Shown here: in pieces, positions 3,547-50,647 of the stretch
Layout: each line of letters starts with the position of its first letter
How positions within the stretch are numbered: the first letter of the stretch is position 1
Origin: Acidobacteriota bacterium
Lineage (GTDB): Bacteria; Acidobacteriota; Aminicenantia; UBA2199
Length of the DNA: 64,000 nt
NCBI GenBank assembly: GCA_039714255.1
Contig: JBDLJQ010000001.1
Coordinates: 96,251-160,250, forward strand
Reading direction: 5' to 3'
Notes under the pieces: generated by a model
What the model saw: the letters and a program-made list of their open reading frames with translations, nothing else
Told to the model about the DNA's origin: nothing
The model's database searches: none
Position numbers and translations under genes: made by a program

Positions 3547-3572
3547 TTTTTTTGCAGATATATAGGGAATGT
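3547..3572. repeat. 26-bp direct repeat, copy 1 (tttttttgcagatatatagggaatgt)
   Basis: Perfect repeat of the sequence at 3635-3661, in the divergent pilM / rplU intergenic region. Confidence 0.85.
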
Positions 3573-3634
3573 CAGCAATGTAAACTCTCGAAACGCCCAT
3601 CCCACGCGGCTTTTCAAATTCAGGTTAAAAAAAA

Positions 3635-3661
3635 ATTTTTTTGCAGATATATAGGGAATGT
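3635..3661. repeat. 26-bp direct repeat, copy 2
   Basis: Identical to 3547-3572, with a period of about 88 bp. Confidence 0.85.
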
Positions 3662-3852
3662 ATGCATTTTCAACTCCTGTAATGCCGGATATAAGCAGAC
3701 TTTCGGATTTCTTCTTTTATATAGGACAATCAAGTAGGTTTTTTTTAAAATATTGGTTTTACATAGTCATTTGCAGAATAAAATTCAGTTAAAACTTGAA
3801 AACAAAAGGAGTTTATGGTATAAGAACATGATATAAAAAAAGGAGTGAACTG

Positions 3853-4281
3853 ATGTTTGCAATACTTGAAAGTGGCGGAAAGCAGTATAAGGTAGAAGAA
3901 GGCGATATACTGGAAGTTGAATTATTAGAGCAGGAAAAGATTTCAAAACAGAATAAATATACATTTAGCAATATTCTTCTCGTAAAAGGAAAAGAGACCC
4001 TGCTGGGCACTCCTTTCGTAAAAAATGCAATGGTTACGGCATCTGTACTTGAAGAGATAAAAGCACCGAAGGTCATAGTTTTTAAGAAAAAATCGAAAAA
4101 ACAATATAAAAAAACAAAAGGACACCGCCAGAAACTCCACAAGGTCCAGATAGATAAGATAGAGATCAAAGCCGAAACAAAGAAAAAAGCTGCTCCTGCA
4201 AAGGAAGAAGCGAAGAAAACCACACCAAAAAAACCTGCAGCAAAGAAAGCTGCTCCCAAAACGGAAAAAAAGGAGAAATAA
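3853..4281 (+). CDS. rplU: 50S ribosomal protein L21 with a Lys/Ala/Pro-rich C-terminal tail
   Basis: [18 protein letters not shown] is the L21 signature. RBS aaggag is upstream. The last ~40 aa are [32 protein letters not shown]. Confidence 0.9.
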
Positions 4282-4283
4282 TT

Positions 4284-4535
4284 ATGGCTCATAAAAAATC
4301 AGGCGGAAGTGCAAAGAACGGAAGAGACAGTATATCCAAAAGGCTGGGAGTAAAAAAATACGGCGGCGAAAAGATCAATGCAGGTTCAATAATTGTGAGA
4401 CAGAGGGGAACAAAGATCAAACCCGGACAGAATGTAGGGATCGGTAAAGATGATACTTTATTCGCTTTATCTACCGGAATAGTTCAATTCGTAACAAAGA
4501 ATAATAAAAAGGTTGTTGAGGTTATACCAAATTAG
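4284..4535 (+). CDS. rpmA: 50S ribosomal protein L27
   Basis: [16 protein letters not shown]... is the L27 signature. Confidence 0.92.
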
Positions 4536-4618
4536 TCTTTCCACCCCGGGCCATGGCCTTCAATTCCAGTTCCCGGAAATCCCGAGAATTAATAAATTCA
4601 TTTAATAAAAAATAACAA

Positions 4619-5626
4619 ATGTTTGTAGATAGAACTATAGTTACATTTATAGCAGGAAAAGGGGGTGACGGATGTGTCAGCTTCCACAGGGAAAAATTTA
4701 TCTCCAAAGGCGGGCCTGACGGAGGAGATGGAGGTAGCGGGGGAAGTATTATCCTCGTAAGCCGTATAAATGTTAACTCTTTAATTGATTTCAAGGGAAA
4801 TCATACAATAAAAGCAGAGAACGGAAAGAACGGAAGCGGCTCCAACAGATATGGAAGGAGCGGGAAAAACAATATCCTTAATGTTCCTCCAGGGACAGTT
4901 ATAAAATCATTCCCGGAAGAAAAAATAATTTTTGATTTTGGAAAAGAGGATGTTGAATTTGTTATAGCTGAAGGTGGAAAAGGAGGCCCTGGAAATGTTC
5001 ATTTTAAATCATCGGTAAACCAGGCTCCCAGAGTAGCAAAAGCAGGAACCCCCGGGGAATCCATAAAAGTAATACTTGAACTTAAGCTCATTGCATTTGC
5101 AGGCCTTGTGGGATTTCCCAATGCGGGAAAATCCACATTAATATCAAAGATCAGCCGGGCAAAACCCAAAGTGGCAAATTATCCCTTTACAACCTTATCA
5201 CCAGGCCTTGGTATTGTTTACCAGGGGTATGAAAGCATGGCAGTAGCTGATATTCCCGGGATAATAGAAGGCGCCCATAAGGGAGAAGGAATGGGGATAG
5301 ATTTTTTGAGGCATATAGAGCGAAACAGAGTACTCATCTTTCTTATTGATCCCGACCCTTCCGCAGAACATTCTCCAAAAAAGAGCCTTGAAATATTGAT
5401 TAATGAGTTAAAATCGTATAAAAAAGAGATAATGAGAAAAAAGTTTCTTGTTGCAGTTAATAAAATTGACCTGTTTGAAGAAACAGATAACCAGGAAAAA
5501 CTTAAGGAACTGAAGGAATATTGCAGCGAAAATAAACTGGATTATATTGAGATCTCTGCTTTAAAAGAGATTAACCTGAATAAACTAAAAAACAAACTTT
5601 TTACCCTTCTAAATGAAAAAGCCTAA
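4619..5626 (+). CDS. obg: GTPase Obg (short form without the C-terminal OCT/TGS domain)
   Basis: Obg fold N-terminus with glycine-rich GGDGGxGG repeats, then G1 (GFPNAGKST) and G3 (DIPG) motifs. 335 aa. Confidence 0.9.
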   Translation: MFVDRTIVTFIAGKGGDGCVSFHREKFISKGGPDGGDGGSGGSIILVSRINVNSLIDFKGNHTIKAENGKNGSGSNRYGRSGKNNILNVPPGTVIKSFPEEKIIFDFGKEDVEFVIAEGGKGGPGNVHFKSSVNQAPRVAKAGTPGESIKVILELKLIAFAGLVGFPNAGKSTLISKISRAKPKVANYPFTTLSPGLGIVYQGYESMAVADIPGIIEGAHKGEGMGIDFLRHIERNRVLIFLIDPDPSAEHSPKKSLEILINELKSYKKEIMRKKFLVAVNKIDLFEETDNQEKLKELKEYCSENKLDYIEISALKEINLNKLKNKLFTLLNEKA

Positions 5627-6257
5627 AAGAACAGGATTGCTTGGTGGAACATTCAACCCCGTCCACAACGGACATATTGATCTGGGAATTCGTGTTATGA
5701 AAGAGTTCAGACTGGACAGGATTCTCTTCATTCTCTCCGCAAGGCCTCCTCACAAATCAACAATTGACCTGGCACCTGTACATCTGAGGTGGAAAATGCT
5801 GAATGAAGCCCTGAAGCCTTATGATAAACTTGATCCCAGTGATATGGAGATAAAAAGAGACAGTTATTCCTGGACCATTGATACACTCACTCAGTTAAAG
5901 AAAGTTCATCCTGAAGAACAATTCTTTTTTATATCCGGAAGCGAAGGGTTCCTGAAAATAAAAACCTGGAAGCTTTATCAACAGGTCCTGAATTCCACAA
6001 ATTTCATAGTAGTTATGAGGAATAAAAACCAGCAGAAAAAAGTTTCTGACCTGTTAAGTTCCGAAAAGATAATTCCCCGGACAAAAAACAGAGAAAACCC
6101 AGAAATCCCCTCTGTTTGTTTTTTCTCATATGCATCAGATAAACTTGACATATCATCAACAATAGTAAGGGAAAAGATAAAAAAGAGGGAAAGTGTAAAA
6201 AAATTTTTAAATAATGAAGTAAAAAACATAATAGAGGAGTATAAACTCTATGAATAA
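5613..6257 (+). CDS. nadD: Nicotinate-nucleotide adenylyltransferase
   Basis: GGTFNPVHNGH is the (H/T)xGH nucleotidyltransferase motif. Conserved position after obg. Confidence 0.85.
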   Translation: MKKPKRTGLLGGTFNPVHNGHIDLGIRVMKEFRLDRILFILSARPPHKSTIDLAPVHLRWKMLNEALKPYDKLDPSDMEIKRDSYSWTIDTLTQLKKVHPEEQFFFISGSEGFLKIKTWKLYQQVLNSTNFIVVMRNKNQQKKVSDLLSSEKIIPRTKNRENPEIPSVCFFSYASDKLDISSTIVREKIKKRESVKKFLNNEVKNIIEEYKLYE

Positions 6258-6636
6258 TTCAGAACCTACAAAATTTTCAGAGAAACTTAAAAAATGGAGA
6301 ATCCCCCCCGGGATCAAAAAAGCCGCATCACTTATTGCAGATAAAAAAGGTGAAGATATCTCAATTTTAAAACTTAAAGGGATTTCAGATATAACAGACT
6401 TTATGATAATATGTAACGGGAACTCTGTGATACAGAACAGAGCTATCTCAAGTGAAATTCAGAAAACACTGAAAAAGGAACTGAATTTAAAGCCACTGGG
6501 GGTAGAGGGAGTTAATTTCGGGGACTGGATCCTCATTGACTATGTTGACTTTATAGTTCACATATTCTCCCGTGAAACCAGGGGAAAATTTTCCCTGGAA
6601 AAATTGTGGATGGATGCAAAAAGATACGATCTATGA
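6250..6636 (+). CDS. rsfS: Ribosome silencing factor RsfS (Iojap)
   Basis: 128 aa with Iojap-like sequence (ILKLKGISDITDFMIICNGNS). Conserved nadD-rsfS order. Confidence 0.8.
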   Translation: MNNSEPTKFSEKLKKWRIPPGIKKAASLIADKKGEDISILKLKGISDITDFMIICNGNSVIQNRAISSEIQKTLKKELNLKPLGVEGVNFGDWILIDYVDFIVHIFSRETRGKFSLEKLWMDAKRYDL

Positions 6637-7528
6637 ATTACTGAATAATTTACAAGATCCTTCTTCCATGGAGATCAGAAAAAAGATCGACATGGTAGCC
6701 AAACTGAATACCAATGTTCTATTTGTCGGAGAAACCGGAACCGGTAAAGATTTCTGGTCAAATTATCTTTTCCATAAGAGCGGAAAGGAGAATATCTTAA
6801 ACCTTAACTGTGGTGATGTTCCGGAAAACCTTCTTGAAAGTGAATGGTTCGGTTATAAAAAAGGTGCTTTCACAGGAGCAGACAGGGATTATGAGGGCAA
6901 GTGGAAGAAAGCTGAGAATGGAATATTATTCCTGAATCAGATAGATCTGCTGGGTTTAAATATGCAGGCAAGGCTTTTAAGGATCATTGAAAGGAAAAAA
7001 TATTTTTCTCTTGGTTCTCCAGTTGAAACAGGGATCAACTCAAGATTTATTTTTTCAGTCGACTTTGATATTGAGGAAAAAGTGAAGAGGAAAGAATTCA
7101 GGCAGGATCTGTTTTACAGGATCTCATCTTATATGATCTCAATACCATCATTAAATAAAAGAGAAAAAGATATAATACCGTTACTTGAATATTTTTCAAA
7201 AAAGAGAGGGCTGGCCATTAACCTTACGCATGCCGGATACAGATATATTACCGGATACAAATGGCCGGGCAATATAAGAGAAATAGAAAATTTTGTAAAC
7301 AATATATCTATAACAAAAGATAGCATTGATGACCATGACGCAGCCCGGCTGGACAAAATTCCTGCGGGAGATTTTAACAATGAAAATGAGTCAACTTTAA
7401 AAGAGATGGAGCGGAAATATATAAAGCACCTCATTAATAAATATAAGAACAAGTCAAAAGTTGCAAAGATCCTCGGAATCTCCAGAAAGGCACTTTATGA
7501 CAAACTTGAAAGATATGGGAAAAATTGA
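6614..7528 (+). CDS. Sigma54-interacting AAA+ enhancer-binding-protein homologue lacking any N-terminal sensor or receiver domain. The Walker B DE is replaced by NQ.
   Basis: Walker A GETGTGKD, the sigma54-contact loop GAFTGA, Walker B position LFLNQI (canonical LFLDEI), and a C-terminal Fis-type HTH (KVAKILGISRKALYDKLERYG). The start is probably the Met at 6614 or 6668, not the ORF start at 6572. It overlaps the rsfS 3' end and the rlmH 5' end. Confidence 0.7.
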   Translation: MQKDTIYELLNNLQDPSSMEIRKKIDMVAKLNTNVLFVGETGTGKDFWSNYLFHKSGKENILNLNCGDVPENLLESEWFGYKKGAFTGADRDYEGKWKKAENGILFLNQIDLLGLNMQARLLRIIERKKYFSLGSPVETGINSRFIFSVDFDIEEKVKRKEFRQDLFYRISSYMISIPSLNKREKDIIPLLEYFSKKRGLAINLTHAGYRYITGYKWPGNIREIENFVNNISITKDSIDDHDAARLDKIPAGDFNNENESTLKEMERKYIKHLINKYKNKSKVAKILGISRKALYDKLERYGKN

Positions 7529-7979
7529 CCTTCTCTGTATTGGAGAACAAAAATTCAGGAGCCTGAAAGAGCTTGAGAAAGATTATATAAAAAAGATCGG
7601 TTTTTTTTCCGGCTTTTCGGTAAAGAACCTTAAAGAGGTTAAAATAAAGGATGAAAAGATTCAAATGGAAAGAGAGGGGAAAGCAATATTGGAAAAACTT
7701 TCTCCTGGTGACCATGTGATAGCTCTTGACCGGAGAGGAAAGGAGATGGATTCCCTTAAGTTTGCAAACTATTTATCTGACAAGATATCATACAGCAACA
7801 AAAAACTGGTTTTTATTATCGGCGGGCAGATGGGATTGTCAGGGGAAGTATTAAAGAGATCAGATCTCACTCTCTCTTTTTCAAAAATGACATTTGCACA
7901 TGATATATTTAAAATTATTTTCCTTGAACAACTGTACAGAGCATTTTCAATAATTAAGGGGACAAAATATCACAGATAA
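7515..7979 (+). CDS. rlmH: 23S rRNA (pseudouridine1915-N3)-methyltransferase RlmH
   Basis: SPOUT fold sequence (GDHVIALDRRGKEMDSLKFA... LVFIIGGQMGLS). The start is the internal Met at 7515 (MGKIDLLCIGEQ). Confidence 0.8.
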   Translation: MGKIDLLCIGEQKFRSLKELEKDYIKKIGFFSGFSVKNLKEVKIKDEKIQMEREGKAILEKLSPGDHVIALDRRGKEMDSLKFANYLSDKISYSNKKLVFIIGGQMGLSGEVLKRSDLTLSFSKMTFAHDIFKIIFLEQLYRAFSIIKGTKYHR

Positions 7980-15221: not shown

Positions 15222-15539
15222 ATGGAAAAAAGAAGAGAGACCAGGCACAGGGTCAGGCAACTGGTAAATGTTTCAGACAAAGTAGGGGTGTTGAATGACA
15301 TCTCAAGAAAAGGGGTAAACATTTCATTGACCTCTCTGCCGAAAGAGAGAAAGATCGACCTTAAATTAAAATTGGACGGAAAAGATATAAAGGTTTCAGC
15401 CATTGTGATGTGGGCAAAAAGAAAACTCAACTACAAAGAACATAATACAATGGGAATGATATTGGTAGATCCACCTCAGGAGTTGATAGAATACTGTATA
15501 TCACTGGATAATAAAGTAATTACCGGTGCTGATTCTTAA
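15222..15539 (+). CDS. PilZ-domain c-di-GMP-binding protein
   Basis: RxxxR (RRETRHR) and D/NxSxxG (DISRKGVNI) motifs. The start is the ATG at 15222; the ORF-track start at 15207 is TTG. Confidence 0.7.
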   Translation: MEKRRETRHRVRQLVNVSDKVGVLNDISRKGVNISLTSLPKERKIDLKLKLDGKDIKVSAIVMWAKRKLNYKEHNTMGMILVDPPQELIEYCISLDNKVITGADS

Positions 15540-17628
15540 CTGATTCCTTCCTCTGTATCTCCCTTATCCGAGTTCTGAGTTTCCTCCACCCCTTTTTATT
15601 CCCGGACATTAAAAGTTTTTCTGCGATATCCTGAAGAATATTGATGTTTTCAACACTATCCTTTACAGCTCCCTTATCCCATATTGTAATAACTTTCAGA
15701 TAAAGATCTCCTGCTTTTGAATAATTTTCTGATAACCTGTAAACCTCAGCAAGCTCATAAACATCATTGGCTGTCTCGAGACTCTCCTTTCCAAACTTTT
15801 TTTCCATAATATTTAGCTTTTGTTTAAACAAGTCCTTTGCATCCTCAAACTTTTTTGTCTCAATATACAGAATCCCAAGTTTCCTCAGAGTTTTATTAAT
15901 AGCAACATCATTGTTTTTGGAATTTAACCTGAAAATATCAATTGCTCTTTTCAGCAATTCTGCAGAGCCATCAAATCTACCGGCTTTTTTTCTGATATCT
16001 GCAAAATGTTCAAGAATCACAATTAAATTAATATTATCTCTGCCAAATGTAGTTTCATATCTTTTTAAAATTCCCTTGAATATGTTTTCTGCTTTTGAAT
16101 ATTCCCCTTTCCATGCAATAAATGTCAGATAATAATTTGTAGTAGTCATAGAGTCCGGGAATGTTTTCAGAGGGAATTTTTTTGTTATCTTAAAAGCTTT
16201 CTCAAAAATTGTTCCCGCTTTTTTCATATAATCCAAAGCTAAAGCAATAACAGGAAGGCCAAACAGAATCTCATGACTTATATTCAAGTTTGGGAAAAAA
16301 AATATTTCTCCGGATAAATAGTAATAATATGAACCGAGATTATTTAAAGAACTCAGGATCTCATAGCTGTTTTCCCCGTATAATTTTTTCCTGTCCTCAA
16401 ATATCCGTAAAAACAACCCTTCAGATCTTTTATATTCCCCTAACTTTTCATAGATGAATGCAAGGGTTGTCACAGCCTCATAATATATGGGGTCACCAGG
16501 TTCTGAAGGTACCGGCTCTATCCTCAATGATCGTTCGATAAACTGCTTCGCTTCACCAAATTTTTTCCACGAAAAATATAATGTTCCGAGTTCTCTTAAT
16601 GTGGAAGCTATACGAGGATCATTTTCACCATACATTTTTTCTTTTTCGCGAAGGACCCTTTTAAAGATCGAATCCGTATATGTATAGATCTTCTGGGCAT
16701 AATAGATCGAAGCCAGATTACTGAGGCTCCGGTACATAACCTCAGGGTTATTATCTGAAGATCTCAGATTTATGTCAATAACCTTTTTCATCAATCCCCT
16801 GGCTTCTGAATATTTTGACCATTTAAAATAAAGTGTTGCAAGGTTATTTAAATTTTTTGCTGTTTCCGGATTGTTGCGGCCGTAAATTTTTTCACTCAAT
16901 TCCAGAGATCTTAACAAAAACTTTTCCGCTCCCTCAAGGTCTCCCTGTGATTGATTTGTAAGCCCAAGGTTGCTTAGGATAAAAACAAGATCTTTTTCAT
17001 CTCCTTTCCCGAGATCAAGATTTAATTGAAGAGCTCTTTTTAATAGTTTTTCAGCCAGGTCAAAATCTCCATTTTTCCTGTGAATATTTCCTAGATATGA
17101 GATACTTCTCAAATATTCCTGATGATTTTTACCAAAAATATTAAATGAGAGTTCAACTCCTTTCTTAAAATATAAAATCGCTGAATTCATATTTTTTTTG
17201 GTTTCATATAAAAAAGCAAGATTTCTGGAATATTTTATTACATTTGCTGATCTTTTCCTTCCGCTTTTCAATTCCAGTTTAAGAGTGTTTTTAAAAAAAA
17301 GTTCTGCATTTTCCAGGTCCTTCATAGCTCTGTATATAACTCCGATATTATTTAAAGAAGTAATATAATTGGGATGGTTTTTACCAAAAGTTTTTTCTGC
17401 ATTTTTCAAAGCTACTTTACCTATCTCAAGAGCTTTCTCATATCTTTTTGCTTTATAAAGTTCCATTACATGGTTATTCTGTACGTTCCAGATATCCTCC
17501 TTTGTACCGTACAAAAAGGCACTTAAGAAAACAAACATGAAAAATACCGGAAAAACTGCCTTTATTCCTTTGTACACTGAAATTGGAGTTTGTTTTGATG
17601 AGATTTTATTCATTTTGCATTTTACCAC
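15520..17628 (-). CDS. Tetratricopeptide-repeat (TPR) protein with an N-terminal signal/TM segment
   Basis: Many tandem 34-aa TPR-like repeats (…NNIGVIYRAMKDLENAELFFKNTLKL…). 702 aa. Confidence 0.75.
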   Translation of the reverse strand: MVKCKMNKISSKQTPISVYKGIKAVFPVFFMFVFLSAFLYGTKEDIWNVQNNHVMELYKAKRYEKALEIGKVALKNAEKTFGKNHPNYITSLNNIGVIYRAMKDLENAELFFKNTLKLELKSGRKRSANVIKYSRNLAFLYETKKNMNSAILYFKKGVELSFNIFGKNHQEYLRSISYLGNIHRKNGDFDLAEKLLKRALQLNLDLGKGDEKDLVFILSNLGLTNQSQGDLEGAEKFLLRSLELSEKIYGRNNPETAKNLNNLATLYFKWSKYSEARGLMKKVIDINLRSSDNNPEVMYRSLSNLASIYYAQKIYTYTDSIFKRVLREKEKMYGENDPRIASTLRELGTLYFSWKKFGEAKQFIERSLRIEPVPSEPGDPIYYEAVTTLAFIYEKLGEYKRSEGLFLRIFEDRKKLYGENSYEILSSLNNLGSYYYYLSGEIFFFPNLNISHEILFGLPVIALALDYMKKAGTIFEKAFKITKKFPLKTFPDSMTTTNYYLTFIAWKGEYSKAENIFKGILKRYETTFGRDNINLIVILEHFADIRKKAGRFDGSAELLKRAIDIFRLNSKNNDVAINKTLRKLGILYIETKKFEDAKDLFKQKLNIMEKKFGKESLETANDVYELAEVYRLSENYSKAGDLYLKVITIWDKGAVKDSVENINILQDIAEKLLMSGNKKGWRKLRTRIREIQRKESVKNQHR

Positions 17629-17736
17629 TTTAAAATGAAATGTAAAATAGAAAAATCCGGTTTCAGTAAACTTGATTATAAACCTGATATGTAATATTAT
17701 TAACGCTTTCAGAGATAAAAAATTTAAAGGTCGATA

Positions 17737-19227
17737 ATGGAAAGTTCAACAGGTCAGATAAAAGATTCAGTATTGTCAGGGCAGCCAATTATCCAGATAA
17801 TTTCATATGAAGAAAAGAGGGTGGAAAATTATCTGGCCAAACTTTGTGAACAGATCTTCAGGACAGACAATATTGCTTTCTGGGATATGAATAACGGACT
17901 GATAAAAAAGGGACAGGCAGTGGAAAATACAATTGACCCTGTAAAAGCACTTGAATATATCACTAATGAAAAAGATCCGGGATTTTACATCTTCAGAGAC
18001 CTGACCCATTATATAAAAACCTCTCATAATACGGTCAGAAAGTTAAGAGAAGCTTATCTTACATTAAAAAATACAAAAAGAGTGATCTTTCTCCTGTCTC
18101 CTGAAGACTTTTTTTCAGATCAACTGAAGAAGGAAGTTGACATATTCAGATTCGAACTTCCCGATTATAACGAACTTGAGGAGTTATTTAAAAGATTTCT
18201 CAGCTCAATGAAAAAATCGGGCAAAACCATCAACCTGAATGATGAAGATAAGAGGATGTTTGTTATTGCAGTTCAGGGACTTACCTATGATGAAGCATAT
18301 AAGGCCTTTATGAAAGCTTTCCAGGGACAGAGTGAAATAAACAGAGAACTTCTGGATAAGATCCACCAGGAAAAAAAACAACTGATATTAAAAGAAGGAG
18401 TTCTGGAATATTATTCCCAGAAACTTTCCATAGATGATATGGGCGGCCTTGACAACCTCAAAGACTGGCTTACAAAAAGGGAGGGAGCTTTTTCAAAGGA
18501 AGCAAGAGAATATGGCCTTGAGAGGCCCCGGGGTTTTCTTGCCATGGGAATATCAGGATGCGGGAAAAGCCTCTCGGCCAAGATCACAGCATCTCTCTGG
18601 AACCTTCCGCTATTTCGCCTCGACATGAACCTTGTCTATTCCGGAATGGCCGGATCGCCTGAAATGGTATTTTCCAGAGCACTGAAAACCATGGATACAG
18701 TTGCACCGGCTATCCTGTGGATAGATGAAATAGAGAGTGGGATCACAGACAAACAGGGAGATAGTGCAAGTTCGAGAATTCTGGGATATTTTCTCACATG
18801 GATGCAGGAACATACATCTGAAATATTTATTGCCGCAACAGCAAACAGGATCGACCTGCTGCCTGCAGAGCTCCTGAGAAGGGGAAGGTTCGACCAGATC
18901 TTCTTTATCGACCTGCCTACCAGAAAAGAGAGGGAAGAGATATTTTCGATACACCTTAAAAGTAAGGGAAATGATACAAACAAGTTTAATATTCCCCAAC
19001 TTGCACAGATAACCAAAGGGTGGTCAGGGAGCGAGATCGAGCAGGTGATAATTTCAGCAATGTATGAAGCCTTTAATGAGAAAAGGGATCTTGAAGAGGA
19101 TGACCTCTTTGTAATATTTGGAAATACAGTACCACTGTCATTAACGATGGAGGAGCAGATAAAAAAGATAAGGAGCTGGGCACACAACAGAGCTGTGAGA
19201 GCTTCATCAGATAAAGAACTATATTAG
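17737..19227 (+). CDS. Classical-clade AAA ATPase with a ~230-aa uncharacterised N-terminal domain
   Basis: Walker A GISGCGKS, Walker B ILWIDEIE, and the second region of homology ATANRIDLLPAELLRRGRFD. The N-terminal half has no recognised motif. Confidence 0.75.
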   Translation: MESSTGQIKDSVLSGQPIIQIISYEEKRVENYLAKLCEQIFRTDNIAFWDMNNGLIKKGQAVENTIDPVKALEYITNEKDPGFYIFRDLTHYIKTSHNTVRKLREAYLTLKNTKRVIFLLSPEDFFSDQLKKEVDIFRFELPDYNELEELFKRFLSSMKKSGKTINLNDEDKRMFVIAVQGLTYDEAYKAFMKAFQGQSEINRELLDKIHQEKKQLILKEGVLEYYSQKLSIDDMGGLDNLKDWLTKREGAFSKEAREYGLERPRGFLAMGISGCGKSLSAKITASLWNLPLFRLDMNLVYSGMAGSPEMVFSRALKTMDTVAPAILWIDEIESGITDKQGDSASSRILGYFLTWMQEHTSEIFIAATANRIDLLPAELLRRGRFDQIFFIDLPTRKEREEIFSIHLKSKGNDTNKFNIPQLAQITKGWSGSEIEQVIISAMYEAFNEKRDLEEDDLFVIFGNTVPLSLTMEEQIKKIRSWAHNRAVRASSDKELY

Positions 19228-21810: not shown

Positions 21811-23823
21811 TTATTTTTTATATTTTTTCAGGGCTTCTTCTATCTTTTTTTCATCTGCTACATAGGGTAATGTAATATGGCCCTTTCCTCTATTTTCTTC
21901 ATTCCACTCTGCTACTGTTTCCAGTGAATTTTTATTCCTTGCCCAGGCACGCCTTGCAACACCATTCATAACATCCCACTCCATTGCCGAGCGGATGATC
22001 TTATCTTTCAATTTGCTTCCATCCAGAACAAGGCCGAACCCTCCGTTAAAAGCTTTACCTATTCCAACACCTCCGCCATTGGAAAGGACAACCATTGACA
22101 TTCCCCTCACGGCATCACCGGCAAAATTCTGTACTGCCATATCAGCAGTCACATTACTTCCATCCTTTATATTGGAAGTTTCCCTGAAAGGTGAATCAGT
22201 ACCTGAAACATCATGATGGTCGCGGCCGATCATAACAGGGCCGATCTCTCCGTTCCTGATCATCTCATTGAACTTTAAGGCAATATTAACTCTTCCACCT
22301 GCATCAGCATAGAGTATCCTCGCCTGGGTGCCAACAACAAGTTCATTCGTTTCAGCATCTTTTATCCACTGGTAATTATCCCTGTCCATACCACGCCTTT
22401 CAGGATCAATCCGGGTCATAGCAGCAGCATCGGTCTTTTTCAGGTCTTCTTTATTACCGGACAGGCATACCCATCTGAAGGGCCCGTAACCATAATCAAA
22501 ACACATGGGCCCCATTATATGCTCTACATAACTGGGATAAACAAATCCGGATGAGGGATCATCCGGGTTTATTGCAACTGATCTTTCTCCTGCATCAAAA
22601 ACCGCTTTCAGGAATGAATTGCCATAATCCCAGAAATAGGTTCCGTTCCCTGTCAGTTCTTTTATTAATTTATAGTGTTTCAGAAGTGACCTGTCCACCT
22701 CTTCATTAAATTTTTCCTGATCATTTTCAAGCAATTTACGCCCTTCTTCAAATGTATAACCTGCCGGTGTATATCCTCCGCCATAAGCATCGTGGCAGGA
22801 AGTCTGATCTGAGAGAAGTTCTATTTTTATTTTCTTTTCTGCAAAATATTCAAGGAGGTCCACAATATTTCCATGATATGCAATGGAGACAGCTTCTTTT
22901 GAGGCCCTGTATTCTTCCATCCATTTTGCTATTTGACTGAGATCCCCGGAAACCAGTGAGACCCAACCCTGGTCCAGTCTTGTCTTTATCCTGGAATAAT
23001 CCACCTCTGCAATAATCCCGATACCCCCGGTGATCTCAATTGCCTTCGGTTGTGCACCACTCATACCTCCCAGGCCTGAGCTTACAAAAACAACTCCACT
23101 GAGATCCTCATCCTGGGGTATGTTAAGATAAAGCCTCCCTGCATTCAGCAGGGTAATATATGTTCCATGTACGATCCCCTGCGGGCCGATATACATCCAT
23201 CCTCCCGCTGTCATCTGTCCGTAATTAGATACCCCCATTGCTGCAGCTTTCTGGAAACCTTCAAGGTTATCATAAAGCCCTACAAGCATCCCGTTAGTTG
23301 AGATCACCCTGGGGGATTCTTTAGAGGTTGGAAAAAGGCCAAGCGGATGACCCGAATATATAATCAGTGTCTGTTCATCGGTCATCTCTTCCAGATATTT
23401 TTTTGTAAGATTATATTGCATCCAGTTTTGGAAAACCTGCCCGTTCTCTCCATAGGTAACCAACTCATAAGGATAAAGTGCTACATCAAAGTCAAGATTA
23501 TTATCTATCATTACCTGAAAAGCCTTTGCTTCGACTATTTTCCCTTTGTATGTGTTAACAGGAGCCCCGCTGAGCTCTCCCTCAGGCCTGTACCTGTAAC
23601 CGTATATTCTCCCCTTTGTAAATAGTTCATCAAGGAATTCCGGAATAAGATCATCGTGAAGATTTTTCGGTATATAACGAAGAGCATTTTGAAGTGCTGT
23701 TATGATCTCCTCTTTTCCAAGATTCAATCCCCGGTTGGGTGCTCTTCTAATGTCCTGCCTGAACTCTTTTTTTTCAGGTAATCTATCGGGTAAAGTAAAG
23801 TTTATTCCATCTTTTAGTTCCAT
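21811..23823 (-). CDS. hutU: Urocanate hydratase
   Basis: Urocanase family sequence throughout (…GMSGAQPKA…, …WVCLSGNKEDL…). The true start is the Met at 23823 with ggagg 5 nt upstream. The ORF-track extension to 24087 crosses the purD promoter region and is an artefact. Confidence 0.85.
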   Translation of the reverse strand: MELKDGINFTLPDRLPEKKEFRQDIRRAPNRGLNLGKEEIITALQNALRYIPKNLHDDLIPEFLDELFTKGRIYGYRYRPEGELSGAPVNTYKGKIVEAKAFQVMIDNNLDFDVALYPYELVTYGENGQVFQNWMQYNLTKKYLEEMTDEQTLIIYSGHPLGLFPTSKESPRVISTNGMLVGLYDNLEGFQKAAAMGVSNYGQMTAGGWMYIGPQGIVHGTYITLLNAGRLYLNIPQDEDLSGVVFVSSGLGGMSGAQPKAIEITGGIGIIAEVDYSRIKTRLDQGWVSLVSGDLSQIAKWMEEYRASKEAVSIAYHGNIVDLLEYFAEKKIKIELLSDQTSCHDAYGGGYTPAGYTFEEGRKLLENDQEKFNEEVDRSLLKHYKLIKELTGNGTYFWDYGNSFLKAVFDAGERSVAINPDDPSSGFVYPSYVEHIMGPMCFDYGYGPFRWVCLSGNKEDLKKTDAAAMTRIDPERRGMDRDNYQWIKDAETNELVVGTQARILYADAGGRVNIALKFNEMIRNGEIGPVMIGRDHHDVSGTDSPFRETSNIKDGSNVTADMAVQNFAGDAVRGMSMVVLSNGGGVGIGKAFNGGFGLVLDGSKLKDKIIRSAMEWDVMNGVARRAWARNKNSLETVAEWNEENRGKGHITLPYVADEKKIEEALKKYKK

Positions 23824-23938
23824 AATTCCTCCAGGTTGAAATATATTCAAAACATCTGTAGTTGTCAAGGTTTTCTGTATGGCAATATTCTTTACCAATC
23901 TGTTCTTATATCGTATAATAAAAAAATCGGAGGCTAAC

Positions 23939-25201
23939 ATGAAAATATTAGTGATCGGTTCAGGCGGAAGGGAACATGCACTTATATGGAAGATATCCCA
24001 ATCAAAAAGGGTAGACAAGATATATGCCCTCCCTGGCAACGGCGGAATAAGTGATCTTGCAGAGATCGTTGATATAGATGCATCCAATATTATTGAGATC
24101 GCAGATTTTGTTCAGGAAAAAAAGATCCACCTCACTGTTGTAGGGCCCGAGCTTCCACTATCACTGGGGATCGTAGACGAATTCAACAAAAGAAACCTTA
24201 AGATATTCGGCCCCACCCGTAAAGCATCTTTAATTGAAAGTTCAAAGGCATTTGCAAAGGAATTTATGAAAAAAAATAAAATTCCTACAGCAGGATATAG
24301 TATCTTCAGCTCTGCCATGGAAGCAGTAAATTATATTAAAACCTGTAATTTTCCGGTGGTAGTAAAAACAGACGGGCTTGCAGCCGGAAAGGGAGTTTTT
24401 ATCTGTGAGGATATAAAAAGTGCAGAGGAGAGTATAAGGACGATCCTTATGGAAAATAAGTTTGGCAAGTCAGGAGAACAGATCGTGATCGAAGAATTTC
24501 TTAAGGGTGAAGAGATGTCATTTATAGTTATATCCGATGGAAAAAGGGCTTTGCCGCTTGTAACCTCAATGGATTATAAGAGAGCAGAAGAGAATGATAA
24601 GGGCCCCAATACGGGTGGGATGGGTGCAATATCACCTGCTCCGGGAATAAATGAAAAACTTTTTAATAAAATTATGGAATCAATAATATTGCCCACAATA
24701 GAAGGATTAAGGTTTGAGGGAAAAGAATTCAGAGGGGTTTTGTATGCAGGATTAATGATAACATCAGAAGGCCCCAAAACACTGGAATTTAATGTGAGAT
24801 TCGGCGACCCGGAGACCCAGGCCATTTTACTCAGATTAAAGAGCGATATAATAGACATATTTGAAGGTGCTGTTGAAGGCAGCCTTCACGATGTGGAAGC
24901 AGAGTGGGAAGAAAATGTTTCTGCATGTGTGGTCCTTGCTTCTGAGGGTTATCCCGGACAATACGAAACCGGAAAAAAACTTGAAGATCTCCATAGGGCA
25001 AAAACTTCCGGAGTAGAAATTTTCCATGCCGGTACAAGAGTTGAGGATAAAACATATCTGACATCCGGAGGAAGAGTATTAAATGTTTGCGCAAGCAGCC
25101 CAACTTTAAAGGAGACAATGAAAAAGATCTATGATTCGATCCCTTTCATAAAATATGAAAATTTATACTACAGAAAAGATATTGGAGGAATTAAACGATG
25201 A
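23939..25201 (+). CDS. purD: Phosphoribosylamine--glycine ligase
   Basis: MKILVIGSGGREHAL is the PurD N-terminus, on an ATP-grasp fold. The start is at 23939 with ggagg upstream and a tataat at 23914-23919. Confidence 0.9.
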   Translation: MKILVIGSGGREHALIWKISQSKRVDKIYALPGNGGISDLAEIVDIDASNIIEIADFVQEKKIHLTVVGPELPLSLGIVDEFNKRNLKIFGPTRKASLIESSKAFAKEFMKKNKIPTAGYSIFSSAMEAVNYIKTCNFPVVVKTDGLAAGKGVFICEDIKSAEESIRTILMENKFGKSGEQIVIEEFLKGEEMSFIVISDGKRALPLVTSMDYKRAEENDKGPNTGGMGAISPAPGINEKLFNKIMESIILPTIEGLRFEGKEFRGVLYAGLMITSEGPKTLEFNVRFGDPETQAILLRLKSDIIDIFEGAVEGSLHDVEAEWEENVSACVVLASEGYPGQYETGKKLEDLHRAKTSGVEIFHAGTRVEDKTYLTSGGRVLNVCASSPTLKETMKKIYDSIPFIKYENLYYRKDIGGIKR

Positions 25202-46580: not shown

Positions 46581-48863
46581 ATGCTGAAAGCCTTTGATAA
46601 GTATGTCCTGAAAGAGATCGCATCTCCATTTGCCATAGGGTTGCTGATCTATACATTTACATTGCTGATCAACATGATATTTATTCTTTCACAGACACTT
46701 ATATCAAAAGGAGCTACAACATTTACAATTGTAAAAATACTGGTTTACCTTTTGCCTGATATTCTCTCTTTCACTATTCCCATGGCAACTTTGATGGGAG
46801 TACTTGCGGGAATGAGCCGCATGAGCACAGACTCGGAAATTGTTGCCCTGAGAACAATGGGTGTGAATAACTTCAGGATATTCAGGCCCATTATAATATT
46901 CTCCCTGATCACATGGTTCATTTCCTCTATCCTTATAATGTATCTTGCCCCGGAAGGGAATTATCAATATCGTAAACTCAATACAAAGATCATGTTATCA
47001 AAAGCTATGTCAAGTATGAAACCGAGAACATTTAACTATGAACTTTATCCCTTTGTATTATTCTTTAATGATATTGATAAAAAGACAAATGAGTGGAAAG
47101 ATGTATTCCTTTATTCCAGAAAAGATCCCAGGACTGACAATGTTATCCTTGCAAAACGGGGAAGTTTCATACAGCTTGAAGGGGAAAGAAAAAGCTATTT
47201 TTCACTGAAAAATGCAACTCTTCACAGCTTTGAAAAAATGAATCCCGGGAAAAAATATTTCACAACATTTCATAAAAAAACCTCTGAAGAGATAATGGAA
47301 ACACTAACCGTAAAAAGAACCAGAAGCAGCCAGCAGCTGATCTTCCCCGAACTGATAAAAAAGATGAAAGAGAGACCGGATGATATTGGCCTTAAGAGGG
47401 AGTTTCACAGAAAATTTTCACTACCCTTTGCATGCCTTGCCCTGGGGTTCCTTGCCCTTTCACTCGGAATATCAACAAAAAAGGGAGGTAAGGTAAGTGG
47501 TTTTATTATTTCCCTTGGGATAATTTTCATCTATTATACTGCAATTACAACATTTCAGAACATTGTCATGAAAGGGATAGTCTCCCCTTTCTTCGGTATG
47601 TGGGCTCCCAATTTTTTCCTGCTCCTTTCAGGATTGATATTTTATTATTACAGCTCAAGGGAAAAATCAATAAACTGGGATAAAATTTTTTCCATCTTCC
47701 ACAGGGAAAAATTTAAAGGAGAGAAAAAAAAAGGTAATATAGTTTTTTCCATCTCCATAAAGAAACCGCAATTAAGATTGTTTAAAATAATAGATGTTTA
47801 TATTCTGAAAAAAATGGTGGCAATGCTGCTGTTTATATTTACATCTCTACTGATGGTCTTTTATATAGTGCGTATTGTAGAACTTATTGACACTATGATC
47901 GAGAACAATATTCCATTTGCCTATGTTTTAAAGTATGTATACTATAATACTCCGGAAATGATAAGCTTTGTACTCCCCGTATCCATATTAACAACTGTTC
48001 TTCTAACTTTCTCAATAATGAGTAAAAACAATGAAATAACCGCAGTCCGTGTCAGTGGTATCAGCTTATACAGAATTGCAGTTCCTGCAATAGTTGTTGG
48101 AATTTTTTTCTCTTTCCTCTACTTTTATATACAGGAAACCATTACCCCCGGAGCGAACAGAAATGCAGTGAGAGTCCTTAATAAAATCTATAAACGAAAG
48201 AGTGCTCCCGATCCGGAACTTTATAAAACCTGGATCTCCGGTAAGGATAACACCTTCTACTTTTATTCTCTGGATACAAAAAACCTGGGGAAAAAGTATA
48301 AAAATTTTAATATTCTCAAATTGAATAAAGATTTTTCAATTAAAGAGAGAATATCAGCACGCACTGCAGTATGGAAAAACAAGAAGGATATAGTATTAAG
48401 AAGAGGTTTTACAAGGGATTTTACAAATAATTCACCCGTCAGGTTTTCAACTTTTAATAAGAAAATTTTTAATATAGAGGAGGGCAAATCATATTTTTCA
48501 AAAAAAGTTTCATATGGCCGGCATATGAATATTTCCCAGCTTAAAGAATATATAAAATATCTGAAGAAGAACGGATCAGAAACTACCAGATATGAGGCAA
48601 AGCTGTTTTATCATTATGCTTTCCCGTTCTCCAGCCTGATAATGGTGTTGATCGCAATACCTTTTTCATTTAGGATGGGTAAAAAGGGGACTCTGTTCGG
48701 TATCGGTATTGCAGTAGCAATATCAATGGTTTTCTGGGCAATTTTCAGTATTTTCAGCGCAATGGGTTCGGCATCAGTTCTATCCCCATTCATTTCTGCT
48801 TTTGCACCAATTCTTTTATTCGCTTCCATTTCCATATATCTTTTTGTAAACATAAAAACATAA
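46581..48863 (+). CDS. lptFG: Fused LPS-export permease LptF-LptG (two YjgP/YjgQ modules in one polypeptide)
   Basis: 760 aa. Residues 1-360 and about 400-760 each have the 6-TM plus periplasmic beta-jellyroll layout of LptF/LptG (two homologous blocks: IYTFTLLINMIFILSQTL... and IFTSLLMVFYIVRIVELID...). Confidence 0.65.
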   Translation: MLKAFDKYVLKEIASPFAIGLLIYTFTLLINMIFILSQTLISKGATTFTIVKILVYLLPDILSFTIPMATLMGVLAGMSRMSTDSEIVALRTMGVNNFRIFRPIIIFSLITWFISSILIMYLAPEGNYQYRKLNTKIMLSKAMSSMKPRTFNYELYPFVLFFNDIDKKTNEWKDVFLYSRKDPRTDNVILAKRGSFIQLEGERKSYFSLKNATLHSFEKMNPGKKYFTTFHKKTSEEIMETLTVKRTRSSQQLIFPELIKKMKERPDDIGLKREFHRKFSLPFACLALGFLALSLGISTKKGGKVSGFIISLGIIFIYYTAITTFQNIVMKGIVSPFFGMWAPNFFLLLSGLIFYYYSSREKSINWDKIFSIFHREKFKGEKKKGNIVFSISIKKPQLRLFKIIDVYILKKMVAMLLFIFTSLLMVFYIVRIVELIDTMIENNIPFAYVLKYVYYNTPEMISFVLPVSILTTVLLTFSIMSKNNEITAVRVSGISLYRIAVPAIVVGIFFSFLYFYIQETITPGANRNAVRVLNKIYKRKSAPDPELYKTWISGKDNTFYFYSLDTKNLGKKYKNFNILKLNKDFSIKERISARTAVWKNKKDIVLRRGFTRDFTNNSPVRFSTFNKKIFNIEEGKSYFSKKVSYGRHMNISQLKEYIKYLKKNGSETTRYEAKLFYHYAFPFSSLIMVLIAIPFSFRMGKKGTLFGIGIAVAISMVFWAIFSIFSAMGSASVLSPFISAFAPILLFASISIYLFVNIKT

Positions 48864-48940: not shown

Positions 48941-49456
48941 TTGATAAAAAAAATTAAAGAAGGAGATAAAAGAGGTTGGAACATGCTTATAGATAAATAT
49001 TCAAATTCTGTTTATAACCTGGCATATAACTTTTGTGGCAATAAAGATGATGCCAGTGATATAACTCAGGATATATTTATCAAGATATATAATAATATTG
49101 ATAAATTCAATGAAAATTACAACCTCTCCTCCTGGATAATGAGATTATCAAAGAACCATTGTATAGACCATTGGAGAAAGAACAAAAAGAATGCTTTAAG
49201 GATCGATTTCGAAGAAAATCTCGCTGTTGAGGATGAGTCACCTGAAGAAGAATTGATCAAAAGCCGGGAAATTGAAGATCTCAGGGAAACACTGCTCAAA
49301 TTGAAACCGGAGTACAGGGCTTTAATAATATTCAGGGATATAAATAACAATTCCTACCAGGAAATATCAGAGCTTCTGGATATTCCTCTGGGAACAGTTA
49401 AATCAAGAATTAACAGAGCAAGGATACAACTTGCAGGGTTATATAAAAATGAATAA
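48941..49456 (+). CDS. ECF-type RNA polymerase sigma-70 family factor
   Basis: Region 2 (SWIMRLSKNHCIDHWRKNKK) and region 4 HTH (SYQEISELLDIPLGTVKSRINRARIQL). Confidence 0.85.
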   Translation: MIKKIKEGDKRGWNMLIDKYSNSVYNLAYNFCGNKDDASDITQDIFIKIYNNIDKFNENYNLSSWIMRLSKNHCIDHWRKNKKNALRIDFEENLAVEDESPEEELIKSREIEDLRETLLKLKPEYRALIIFRDINNNSYQEISELLDIPLGTVKSRINRARIQLAGLYKNE

Positions 49457-49982
49457 TAAAAACTTAGATTGTAAAAAGATCGAAGAATTATTATCCGGTT
49501 TTATTGAGAATGATCTGAGCCCGGATGAAAGACGTAATGTGGAACAACATCTTGCTTCCTGTAGCAAATGCAGTGAGAAGGAAGAGAACATACTCCATTT
49601 GAGATCTGTTCTTCCGGAACTAACTACCGATATCCCTTTCTTCATGAAGAACAGGCTTTATTACATTGCCGAGGCAGAGGAACACGAACCCGACAAGCAA
49701 TGGCCCTATATAAAGTGGGTTGCTGCAGCAATCGGAACTATAATACTTTTTCTGAACCTTTTCTATTTCACAAATATATTTCCCGCTGCAAACAAAACAT
49801 TACATACGGCTGTAGCGGGGATAGAAAAGTTTGTTGTGGAGACAGAGGCATTTTTTGAACGCATAAAGGAATCAAACAACAATTTACGAATAAATAAAAA
49901 TGAGTCCATCTCAAAAAACGACGAAGAGGAAACTGAGAAAGAGACTACAAAAATGACTAAAAAGGGGGTTATTTATGGATAA
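49449..49982 (+). CDS. Zinc-binding (ZAS-like) transmembrane anti-sigma factor
   Basis: C-x24-HLASCSKC (HxxxCxxC) and a single TM helix (WVAAAIGTIILFLNLFYF). Overlaps the sigma-factor gene. Confidence 0.7.
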   Translation: MNNKNLDCKKIEELLSGFIENDLSPDERRNVEQHLASCSKCSEKEENILHLRSVLPELTTDIPFFMKNRLYYIAEAEEHEPDKQWPYIKWVAAAIGTIILFLNLFYFTNIFPAANKTLHTAVAGIEKFVVETEAFFERIKESNNNLRINKNESISKNDEEETEKETTKMTKKGVIYG

Positions 49983-50475
49983 TGATCTAAGATCAACTGA
50001 AAAAAAACACCCGGGACTAGCTGCCGTAATATCAGCTCTGTTCCCAGGATCGGGACTTTTTTATGTGGGAAATTATGTTAAAGGTTTTTCATATCTCCTT
50101 ATATTCGTACTTCTGATCGTCCTGCTTGTAAATACAGCTACAGATGGAAGGCAATCGATGATCATGGAAATTATTATCTTTTCTCTTCTGCTTGCAGGAT
50201 TTTATGTTTTTCAGATCATTGACAGTTACAATGAAGCAAAGCTTACCGGAAGCTATCCGGATAAAGAGGTGAGTGATGATGTCAGATCGGAGATCTCGCT
50301 GACCGGTTCAATAATAATATTGATACTTGGAGTCCTTTTTTTAATGAGGAACCTTGAACTTATTTCTTATAGAAATATTATTAAATTGTGGCCTCTGTTC
50401 CTTATTGGTGTAGGCCTGAAAATAGTAATTGAATTTTTATTGGAAAAGGAGAATGATAATGAGCAAGAAAAATAG
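49975..50475 (+). CDS. Membrane protein with an N-terminal FPGxGxxYxG (TM2/DUF5683-like) motif and a C-terminal DUF5668 (LiaF-type) TM region
   Basis: ALFPGSGLFYVGNYVKG, and ...LGVLFLMRNLELISYRNIIKLWPLFLIGVGL. Confidence 0.5.
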   Translation: MDNDLRSTEKKHPGLAAVISALFPGSGLFYVGNYVKGFSYLLIFVLLIVLLVNTATDGRQSMIMEIIIFSLLLAGFYVFQIIDSYNEAKLTGSYPDKEVSDDVRSEISLTGSIIILILGVLFLMRNLELISYRNIIKLWPLFLIGVGLKIVIEFLLEKENDNEQEK

Positions 50476-50647
50476 TGAAACAATATTCTGGGGAATAATT
50501 ATAATTTTAATAGGAATAATTTTCCTTGCAAAAAATCTCGGTTGGACTGACCTTCACATTTGGGACATAGTTGGAAAATACTGGCCACTCATATTAATTT
50601 ATATCGGAGCAAAAAATATAATTTCCTTCATTTCAAATAAAAAATGA
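50429..50647 (+). CDS. Small DUF5668 (LiaF N-terminal-like) membrane protein
   Basis: IFWGIIIILIGIIFLAKNLGW...KYWPLILIYIG. The start is probably an internal Met near 50453-50459. Confidence 0.45.
   Translation: MNFYWKRRMIMSKKNSETIFWGIIIILIGIIFLAKNLGWTDLHIWDIVGKYWPLILIYIGAKNIISFISNKK

Follow-up and report, generated by a model that had tools for sequence, protein, structure and literature searches.

Can an enhancer-binding protein (EBP) whose hydrolysis site has been altered still act on sigma54, and if so, what would it do there? This question is raised by one gene in a 64,000-nucleotide stretch of an Acidobacteriota bacterium of the Aminicenantia (GenBank assembly GCA_039714255.1, contig JBDLJQ010000001.1, positions 96,251 to 160,250 of the forward strand), referred to below as the window. 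EBPs are the textbook ATP-burning transcription activators, and variants with the Walker B glutamate changed to glutamine or alanine are laboratory tools that freeze their cycle. The gene lies between rsfS and rlmH and encodes a receiver-less EBP-like protein, in which an original prediction made from the sequence alone had noticed Asn-Gln in place of the Walker B Asp-Glu pair. Our tentative answer, to which we assign a probability of roughly 0.42, is that the protein would be an ATP-binding, hydrolysis-incompetent EBP paralogue that binds sigma54-RNA polymerase in a nucleotide-dependent manner and blocks or poises the polymerase rather than remodelling it.

The open reading frame (ORF) listed in the original prediction at 6572-7528 on the plus strand is present in the window, opens with GTG and encodes 318 amino acids (aa). 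The residue encoded by ATG 6614 was the start in 33 of 36 aligned orthologues (MQKDTI or MPNDTI, ~306 aa), and the gene was therefore taken as 6614-7528 (304 aa). The gene and the motifs of its product are as follows.

6614..7528, plus strand: EBP-like gene, 304 aa; GTG 6572 opens the ORF, ATG 6614 is common to orthologues, stop codon at 7526-7528
6728..6751, plus strand: Walker A (P-loop) GETGTGKD, residues 39-46; Lys45 intact, next residue Asp versus canonical Glu
6863..6880, plus strand: L1 loop GAFTGA, residues 84-89; sigma54-contact motif within the family-invariant block LLESEWFGYxxGAFTGA
6923..6940, plus strand: degenerate Walker B ILFLNQ, residues 104-109; N108 (aat, 6935-6937) and Q109 (cag, 6938-6940) for canonical Asp and Glu
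7055..7063, plus strand: altered sensor I SVD, residues 148-150; canonical ATN
7100..7120, plus strand: arginine-finger segment RQDLFYR, residues 163-169; R163 and R169 invariant in the family
7262..7282, plus strand: sensor II segment WPGNIRE, residues 217-223; R222 conserved
7394..7516, plus strand: C-terminal Fis-type helix-turn-helix (HTH; HTH_8), residues ~261-301; identified by Pfam and conserved in the family

Pfam identified Sigma54_activat (PF00158; E-value 2.1e-46, profile positions 5-167 of 168), AAA_lid_14 (1.8e-9) and HTH_8 (5.9e-10) in the protein. The AAA+ profile begins at about residue 15 of 304, and ~30 residues forming two short helices precede the AAA+ core; no Pfam domain was found N-terminal to it, in agreement with the earlier statement that a receiver or sensor domain is lacking. 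None of the curated NCBIfam equivalog models reached its cutoff. The original prediction had also credited the protein with every EBP hallmark. The PF00158 profile with the EBP fold, Walker A, GAFTGA, the arginine fingers, the sensor II Arg and the Fis-type HTH were indeed present, but the Walker B catalytic Glu and the sensor I Thr/Asn were missing, sensor I reading SVD and not ATN. Judged from these residues, the protein is an EBP by homology, and its Walker B and sensor I positions place it outside the functional class of ATP-hydrolysing activators.

A phmmer search against all PDB chains aligned 'ilflnqidl' with 'tlfldeige' of Aquifex aeolicus NtrC1 (4l4u), ZraR (1ojl), NtrC4 (3dzd) and NifA (9qq6) with no gaps nearby, and N108 and Q109 therefore correspond to the Walker B Asp and Glu columns. 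The proposal that LFLNQI occupies the position of LFLDEI thus held column for column, although the two codons lie one base to the right of the 6934-6939 originally given. NtrC1, NtrC4, ZraR and NifA were the best PDB sequence matches (E-values of 7.6e-48 to 5e-44), and VpsR (7v2b) was also among the matches. In an AlphaFold2 model built with 36 orthologues (predicted local distance difference test score 85.5), strand beta3 (residues 104-108) ended at N108, where the Walker B Asp belongs. The top fold matches of this model were NtrC1 ATPase domains, the first of which was the NtrC1 Walker B mutant 3m0e. Structures of the NtrC1/NtrC4/ZraR/NifA type could be superimposed with target-normalised template modelling scores of 0.85-0.88, a root-mean-square deviation of ~2.2 Å and 30-36% identity, and FlrC, FleQ and PspF were further fold matches.

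The substitution was followed through the protein family in two data sets, namely an alignment of 124 family proteins compared with the 146 nearest non-family EBPs, and a survey of one genome per GTDB species, which yielded 61 family loci with 45-70% identity. The best 120 database homologues were ~300-318 aa long and 55-100% identical, and those with names were from Aminicenantes or Acidobacteriota metagenome-assembled genomes. Beyond the 61 family loci there was a sharp gap, followed by ordinary EBPs with at most 34% identity, all with DE and ATN. A deeper search of 1.84 billion cluster representatives returned only three further family-level representatives; two ~300-aa outliers (P0138 and P0147) carried NQ or NG, and generic EBPs came after them. 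The outlier P0147 had no Pfam HTH match. A DE-bearing ancestor in the same operon slot was not found by a search seeded with P0147, which returned family members and then unrelated canonical EBPs. The family appears to be confined to Aminicenantia; nearly all of the surveyed proteins and genomes carry Aminicenantes or Acidobacteriota labels, and the organisms are uncultured.

The Walker B pair was NQ in 111, DQ in 7 and NR in 6 of the 124 family proteins, whereas DE was present in 137 of the 146 nearest non-family EBPs (94%). At the level of loci it was NQ in 43, NG in 6, NR in 4, NN in 3, DQ in 2, and NH and GS in one each, the remaining locus being truncated. The catalytic Glu was thus found in none of the 61 species-level loci and none of the 124 proteins, and the NQ-type substitution is ancient and fixed. 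The deeper branches showed varied residues at the Glu column (Q, G, N, R, H or S) and at the sensor I Asp (D, G, A or T), which fits a relaxed catalytic constraint.

An unbiased column comparison between the family and the non-family EBPs showed that the changed canonical near-invariant positions cluster at the hydrolysis site: E46D, T104I, D108N, E109Q, A148S, T149A/V and N150D. At sensor I, the family includes SAD, STD, SAG and others besides the SVD of the window, where canonical EBPs have T in 87% and N in 88%. The retained positions comprised G39, G42, G44, K45, the glutamate-switch Asn65, the LLESE-FG-xx-GAF[TS]GA block, R144, R163, D165, R169, R183, WxGNxRE (R222) and the HTH. Within Walker A, G39, G42, G44 and K45 were invariant or near-invariant (99-100%); R163 and R169 were present in 124/124 proteins and R222 in 123/124. 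Both the P-loop Lys and the arginine-finger motif were found in 60 of the 61 loci, with the remaining locus cut off in each case. The L1 loop read GAFTGA in 42 loci, GAFSGA in 18 and GSFTGA in 1, and its block was invariant or near-invariant and the most conserved part of the protein. Furthermore, the family has invariant residues of its own at W48, D68, W78, W97, D111 and L112.

These comparisons indicate that the family has given up the catalytic residues (the Asp-Glu pair of Walker B, Thr-Asn of sensor I and the Glu that follows the P-loop Lys) and has kept those for nucleotide binding and inter-subunit contact (P-loop Lys, arginine fingers and sensor II Arg), together with the sigma54-contacting loop and the Fis-type HTH. 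Such a pattern is typical of an AAA+ domain that has become a nucleotide-dependent binding or switch module. The sequence argues against ATP hydrolysis, on which the conversion of closed to open complexes by canonical EBPs depends. Further changes that the original prediction had not seen, namely T to A/V and N to D at sensor I and E to D next to the P-loop Lys, make a loss of hydrolysis more likely. Purifying selection acts on the gene: its ratio of nonsynonymous to synonymous substitution rates (dN/dS) is 0.15 in the comparison with the orthologue in L004 (75% identity), and the neighbouring genes give 0.05-0.11.

Several observations concern the naming and the surroundings of the family. 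Family proteins are annotated as 'sigma-54-dependent Fis family transcriptional regulator' or 'NtrC family response regulator', and these pipeline names are misleading for both the activity and the receiver domain that they imply. The depositors assigned loci L023, L036, L037, L038, L041 and the 'binchicken' loci to Deferrimicrobium, Chrysiogenales, Patescibacteria, Omnitrophota or 'uncultured Clostridia'. Compared with the window, identities are 65-89% for L27 and 54-71% for Obg, and in L27, Obg and RsfS these loci resemble the window no less than labelled Aminicenantes do; the labels are probably submitter placeholders or the result of mis-binning. Outside the family, the otherwise canonical EBPs P0149, P0233 and P0270, from other lineages, carry a Walker B 'LNE' (Asp to Asn with the Glu kept), a P-loop GETGTGKD and an intact ATN. 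The context of P0270 (L086/L087) is unrelated, and P0149 has relatives in Persephonella, Ignavibacteria and others. Four proteins of 764-1027 aa (P0123, P0126, P0134 and P0141) match the query in three separate stretches and apparently have tandem EBP-type AAA+ modules; degenerate Walker B motifs (DG, EN, DH) occur in P0137 and P0143, which match in two stretches each, and in P0141.

In the window the gene order is rplU-rpmA-obg-nadD-rsfS-X-rlmH, where X is the EBP-like gene, and consecutive genes overlap from obg through rlmH. The neighbouring features are as follows.

3796..3824, plus strand: putative sigma70-type promoter of the rplU string (TTGAAA, 17 nt, TGG-TATAAG), read by eye with no scan, 30 bp upstream of rplU
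3853-4281, plus strand: rplU, upstream in the same gene string (3853..6257)
4284-4535, plus strand: rpmA, upstream in the same gene string
4619-5626, plus strand: obg, upstream in the same gene string
5613-6257, plus strand: nadD, upstream in the same gene string
6250..6636, plus strand: rsfS (ribosomal silencing factor); 3' end shared with the EBP-like gene over 23 nt
7515..7979, plus strand: rlmH (SPOUT 23S rRNA methyltransferase), conserved ATG at 7515; 5' end shared with the EBP-like gene over 14 nt

The overlaps with rsfS (23 nt) and rlmH (14 nt) agree with what had been described. The pilMNOPQ cluster, however, does not run into the ribosomal operon as proposed: it lies on the minus strand and is divergent from rplU across a 374-bp spacer, the identity of the pil genes being taken from the syntenic locus L001. 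No terminator-like site was found on the plus strand between 3400 and 8100, and no known RNA element (Rfam) between 3300 and 8200. Given its position in the rplU-to-rlmH string, the EBP-like gene is probably co-transcribed with the ribosome-biogenesis genes and produced in step with them.

Across the surveyed loci, rsfS was directly upstream in 60 of 61, the remaining locus ending at a contig end, and the 23-nt overlap with rsfS was found in 50. rlmH was downstream in 52 loci, and the complete rpmA-obg-nadD-rsfS-X-rlmH string was present in 47. In CP070627.1, a 9.1-Mb genome, an aminotransferase gene and thiI took the place of rlmH, and the rsfS overlap was retained. The 38-40%-identical outlier P0147 occupied the same slot on a contig of 30% GC, and the GC content of the family loci ranged from 0.29 to 0.69; the gene has therefore been a stable insertion between rsfS and rlmH for a long time. 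The constant placement after rsfS suggests an unexplored link of sigma54-type regulation to ribosome biogenesis or silencing.

An ATP-binding protein of this kind has an experimental precedent. The E108Q variant of PspF shows less than 1% of the ATPase activity, binds ATP 30-fold more tightly and forms a constitutive, nucleotide-independent hexamer; in the presence of ATP, the variant and the sigma54 holoenzyme assemble into a stable intermediate complex, for which GAFTGA is required (PMC4132715). By analogy, the family proteins would bind ATP tightly and form stable rings, and the HTH would dock the ring on DNA. The L1 loops, in the conformation of the ATP state, would then engage region I of sigma54 in the closed complex; the PspF E108Q data (PMC4132715) are a precedent for this step and for the first one. 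As ATP would not be turned over, sigma54-RNA polymerase would be held in a blocked or poised state, or genuine activators would be outcompeted, and open complexes would not be formed repeatedly. Through translational coupling to rsfS, the dosage of the protein may track the ribosome-biogenesis operon. A doubtful but conceivable extension is that the protein serves as a natural 'ATP-locked' EBP, a growth-coupled sigma54 brake or poising factor made in fixed proportion to obg-nadD-rsfS-rlmH, which binds ATP or senses the ATP/ADP ratio without hydrolysis. Its GAFTGA loops would in that case occupy closed complexes, and sigma54 regulons would be silent or primed during ribosome synthesis.

A number of results weigh against the blocking or poising role, chief among them those on sigma54 itself. 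The main weakness is that we infer sigma54 in these organisms only from the conservation of the L1 loop and from canonical EBPs of sister classes; canonical GAFTGA/DE EBPs were indeed present in sister Acidobacteriota classes (L067-L084). A regular-expression search of all six frames of the window and 65 family loci (690 kb), a small and redundant part of each genome, found no RpoN box, and the same kind of search found no second GAFTGA protein or canonical EBP. When the nearest EBP with a receiver domain (P0149) was used as the seed of a search, the matches were in Persephonella, Ignavibacteria and others, and no canonical EBP of Aminicenantia was among them; the cluster names of the ten closest non-family EBPs gave no taxonomy. 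Matches to the -24/-12 promoter (TGGCAC-N5-TTGC, at most one mismatch) numbered 3 in the window versus 1.7 expected, all intragenic, and 2 in the family loci versus 4.9 in shuffles, and were thus not enriched but at or below chance. The literature searched contained nothing on sigma-54 or rpoN in Aminicenantes, and both an Acidobacteriota comparative paper and the sigma54 survey of Francke (2011) are silent on it. In addition, rare family members carry GAFTDA, GAFSDA or GAFTSA in the L1 loop, and the high conservation of N108, Q109, D111 and D68 in the main clade could mean a remodelled site that still works. Finally, the original prediction went too far in stating that a Glu to Gln change is enough to end hydrolysis and to lock an activator onto sigma54. 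PspF E108Q keeps a residual ATPase activity and can stimulate transcription when ATP is low or the DNA is pre-melted (PMC4132715). The change is therefore not a pure trap, regulation may be of either sign, and the originally proposed trap, decoy or scaffold is a candidate function.

This residual activation of PspF E108Q therefore leaves room for an activator role, in which the family would act at sigma54 promoters through the energy of ATP binding, with little or no turnover, on easily melted promoters and tuned to low ATP. PspF E108Q activates maximally at ~0.02 mM ATP, 100-fold below the wild type, and fully remodels the holoenzyme on pre-melted DNA (PMC4132715); GAFTGA, the arginine fingers and the HTH are all conserved in the family, and the window is AT-rich (GC ~0.37). 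We nevertheless consider such an activator unlikely. Besides the Glu, the family has changes in the Walker B Asp and in sensor I, a more severe lesion than E108Q, and several clades have G, N, R or H at the Glu column. Family loci reach 69% GC, so easy melting is not general, and a sigma54 promoter was not found near the gene. If sigma54 is left out altogether, the AAA+ domain could be a nucleotide-sensing oligomerisation module for a Fis-type HTH that acts as a repressor or activator at sigma70 promoters, perhaps at that of its own ribosome-related operon. TyrR, VpsR and Rhodobacter capsulatus NtrC are precedents, being EBP-like proteins that need no ATP hydrolysis, act at sigma70 promoters and have lost GAFTGA. 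The lack of an RpoN box in the window and the 690 kb of family loci, the putative sigma70-like promoter of the operon, the fixed place beside rsfS with its suggested ribosome or growth link, and the PDB match to VpsR are in line with this explanation, which is decidedly unlikely in our estimate: those relatives lack GAFTGA, whereas all 61 loci keep GAF[TS]GA or GSFTGA, and no candidate operator common to all clades was found upstream of rplU.

An inactive subunit in mixed rings is more doubtful again. The protein would co-assemble with an active EBP encoded elsewhere, supply arginine fingers in trans together with L1 loops, and act as a tuning or targeting partner. Arginine fingers serve the site of the neighbouring subunit and are invariant here though the protein's own site looks dead; linked PspF dimers tolerate hydrolysis-defective alternating subunits for DNA remodelling (PMC4132715), and co-dependent EBP pairs such as HrpR/HrpS exist (PMC3105312). 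However, arginine fingers are needed equally for ATP-dependent homo-oligomerisation, no linked partner EBP gene was present in the 61 loci or the window, and the search seeded with P0149 had revealed no canonical Aminicenantia EBP to pair with. It is very improbable that the protein is a normal ATPase with a relocated catalytic carboxylate, with D150 of sensor I, D111 (two residues after the Glu column) and D68 taking over the roles of the Walker B Asp and Glu. The change from DE...ATN to NQ...SAD does resemble a D/N swap between adjacent strand ends, and all 124 proteins carry D111 and D68, at columns that are Gly and Ala in canonical EBPs. Yet various family members have G, A, T, E, S, H or N at position 150. 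Canonical EBPs, moreover, have an acid at column 112 (E/D in 119 of 146) where the family has Leu, so that D111 looks like a one-position shift. The probability of an artefact or a decaying pseudogene, whether from the sequencing or assembly error that the original prediction had named as the alternative or from a recent inactivating mutation, is close to zero. Nothing was found in its favour, and it was rejected: the protein from an independent assembly (P0001) is 100% identical to that of the window, relatives likewise lack DE, the substitution is shared by 61 species-level genomes and 124 protein clusters, the frames are intact, and dN/dS is 0.15.

The region upstream of rplU was also inspected. 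The 9-mer TGGTATAAA, from the -10 region of the putative rplU promoter, was common to 19 of 54 rplU upstream regions and was the most widely shared 9-mer. No conserved HTH operator common to all clades was found there, this sigma70-like -10 element being the only one widely shared. The pilM(-)/rplU(+) spacer contains a 51-nt direct repeat (3547-3597 and 3636-3686) with a 26-nt exact core, TTTTTTTGCAGATATATAGGGAATGT, at a spacing of 89 bp. The same tandem element, with 89-90 bp spacing, was found at the same place in L001/L014, L004, L011, L013, L025 and L043, and a single copy in L005 and L009; the tandem form is limited to the subclade with pilMNOPQ upstream, which gene calls confirm for L001/L014 only. 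Read on the minus strand, each copy shows TTTACA or TTGAAA, 16 nt and TATATC, and the two copies may be, as judged by eye only, a pair of leftward pilM promoters and not a sigma54 promoter. As the repeat is limited to one subclade and reads as two leftward promoters, it was rejected as an operator for the HTH. The 83-nt spacer between rpmA and obg (4536-4618) carries GC-rich palindromic sequence in the window (CCCGGGCCATGGCC, TTCCCGGAA) and a different inverted repeat, CTTCAGA...TCTGAAG, in L009, L011, L014 and L043. It had no Rfam match, and its sequence suggests a conserved hairpin that would separate obg from the ribosomal-protein genes as an attenuator or processing site.

The Pfam content of 30 further ORFs in the window comprised only housekeeping genes and an extracytoplasmic function (ECF) sigma factor. 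The latter belongs to a compact module of the envelope-stress type at 48941-51879 on the plus strand, immediately after a fused lptF/lptG (46581-48863), which encodes an ECF sigma70 factor (171 aa), a zf-HC2 anti-sigma factor (183 aa), a LiaF-like membrane protein (166 aa) and a DUF4097 'toastrack' protein (411 aa). At 15520-19227, the gene for a 702-aa tetratricopeptide-repeat protein on the minus strand diverges from that for a 496-aa classical AAA (PF00004) ATPase, whose N-terminal ~260 aa are unannotated. The urocanase ORF (21811-24087, minus strand, 758 aa) has its Pfam domains from residue 175, and its 5' part overlaps the purD ORF (23879-25201, plus strand) by ~200 nt; the listed TTG start is probably too far upstream. 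The block at 20-24 kb has the highest GC content in the window (0.43 versus ~0.37).

What the family offers, beyond this window, is a whole natural set of EBPs in which the hydrolysis residues are gone and the residues predicted for ATP binding, ring formation, sigma54 contact and DNA binding are under purifying selection in loci of 29-69% GC. Its maintenance over this range indicates that evolution therefore has a use for the 'frozen' state. The family could serve as a natural system for asking what ATP binding alone does to the sigma54 holoenzyme. Full-text literature searches turned up neither a natural EBP that combines GAFTGA with a deficient Walker B nor an EBP gene placed between rsfS and rlmH. 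If the extended reading as an 'ATP-locked', growth-coupled brake or poising factor is correct, the protein would be the first known pseudo-ATPase EBP and the first protein-level sigma54 antagonist derived from its own activator.

Comparison with known systems places the protein near, but not within, each of them. Escherichia coli PspF is likewise a receiver-less AAA+ protein with an HTH, of ~300 aa, with GAFTGA, Walker A, arginine fingers and sensor II, and its E108Q variant is the laboratory counterpart of the natural Q109. The similarity is nevertheless at the general EBP level only (TIGR02974, 173 bits versus a cutoff of 443.55; NF008622, 144 versus 529). The family protein, unlike PspF, also lacks the Walker B Asp and the sensor I Thr/Asn, and its gene lies in a ribosome-biogenesis operon and not a stress operon, with rsfS and rlmH as neighbours in 52 of 61 loci and no linked pspA-type partner. 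NtrC1 and NtrC4 of Aquifex aeolicus, ZraR and NifA are the best matches in sequence and fold, but they carry receiver or GAF domains and an intact DE and ATN. VpsR, TyrR and R. capsulatus NtrC have the EBP fold in common with the family and regulate independently of hydrolysis, whereas the family keeps GAF[T/S]GA almost without exception; the TyrR model NF008085 gave 150 bits versus a cutoff of 576.

FleT is a short EBP paralogue that acts in mixed rings with FleQ, and in HrpR/HrpS and FleQ/FleT the partners, as far as is known, keep their catalytic motifs and are encoded by adjacent genes. The family resembles these short or truncated paralogues within mixed rings (PMC3105312 for HrpR/HrpS). 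In contrast to them, no partner gene is linked to the family gene. The D2 domain of NSF and the ORC4/5-type subunits bind ATP without hydrolysing it, and the nucleotide serves as a structural or switch ligand. They belong to unrelated AAA+ clades, and none of them is a transcription factor with a sigma54-contact loop. Like the family, however, they keep Walker A and have lost the catalytic Walker B and sensor I residues, and theirs would be its most likely way of working.

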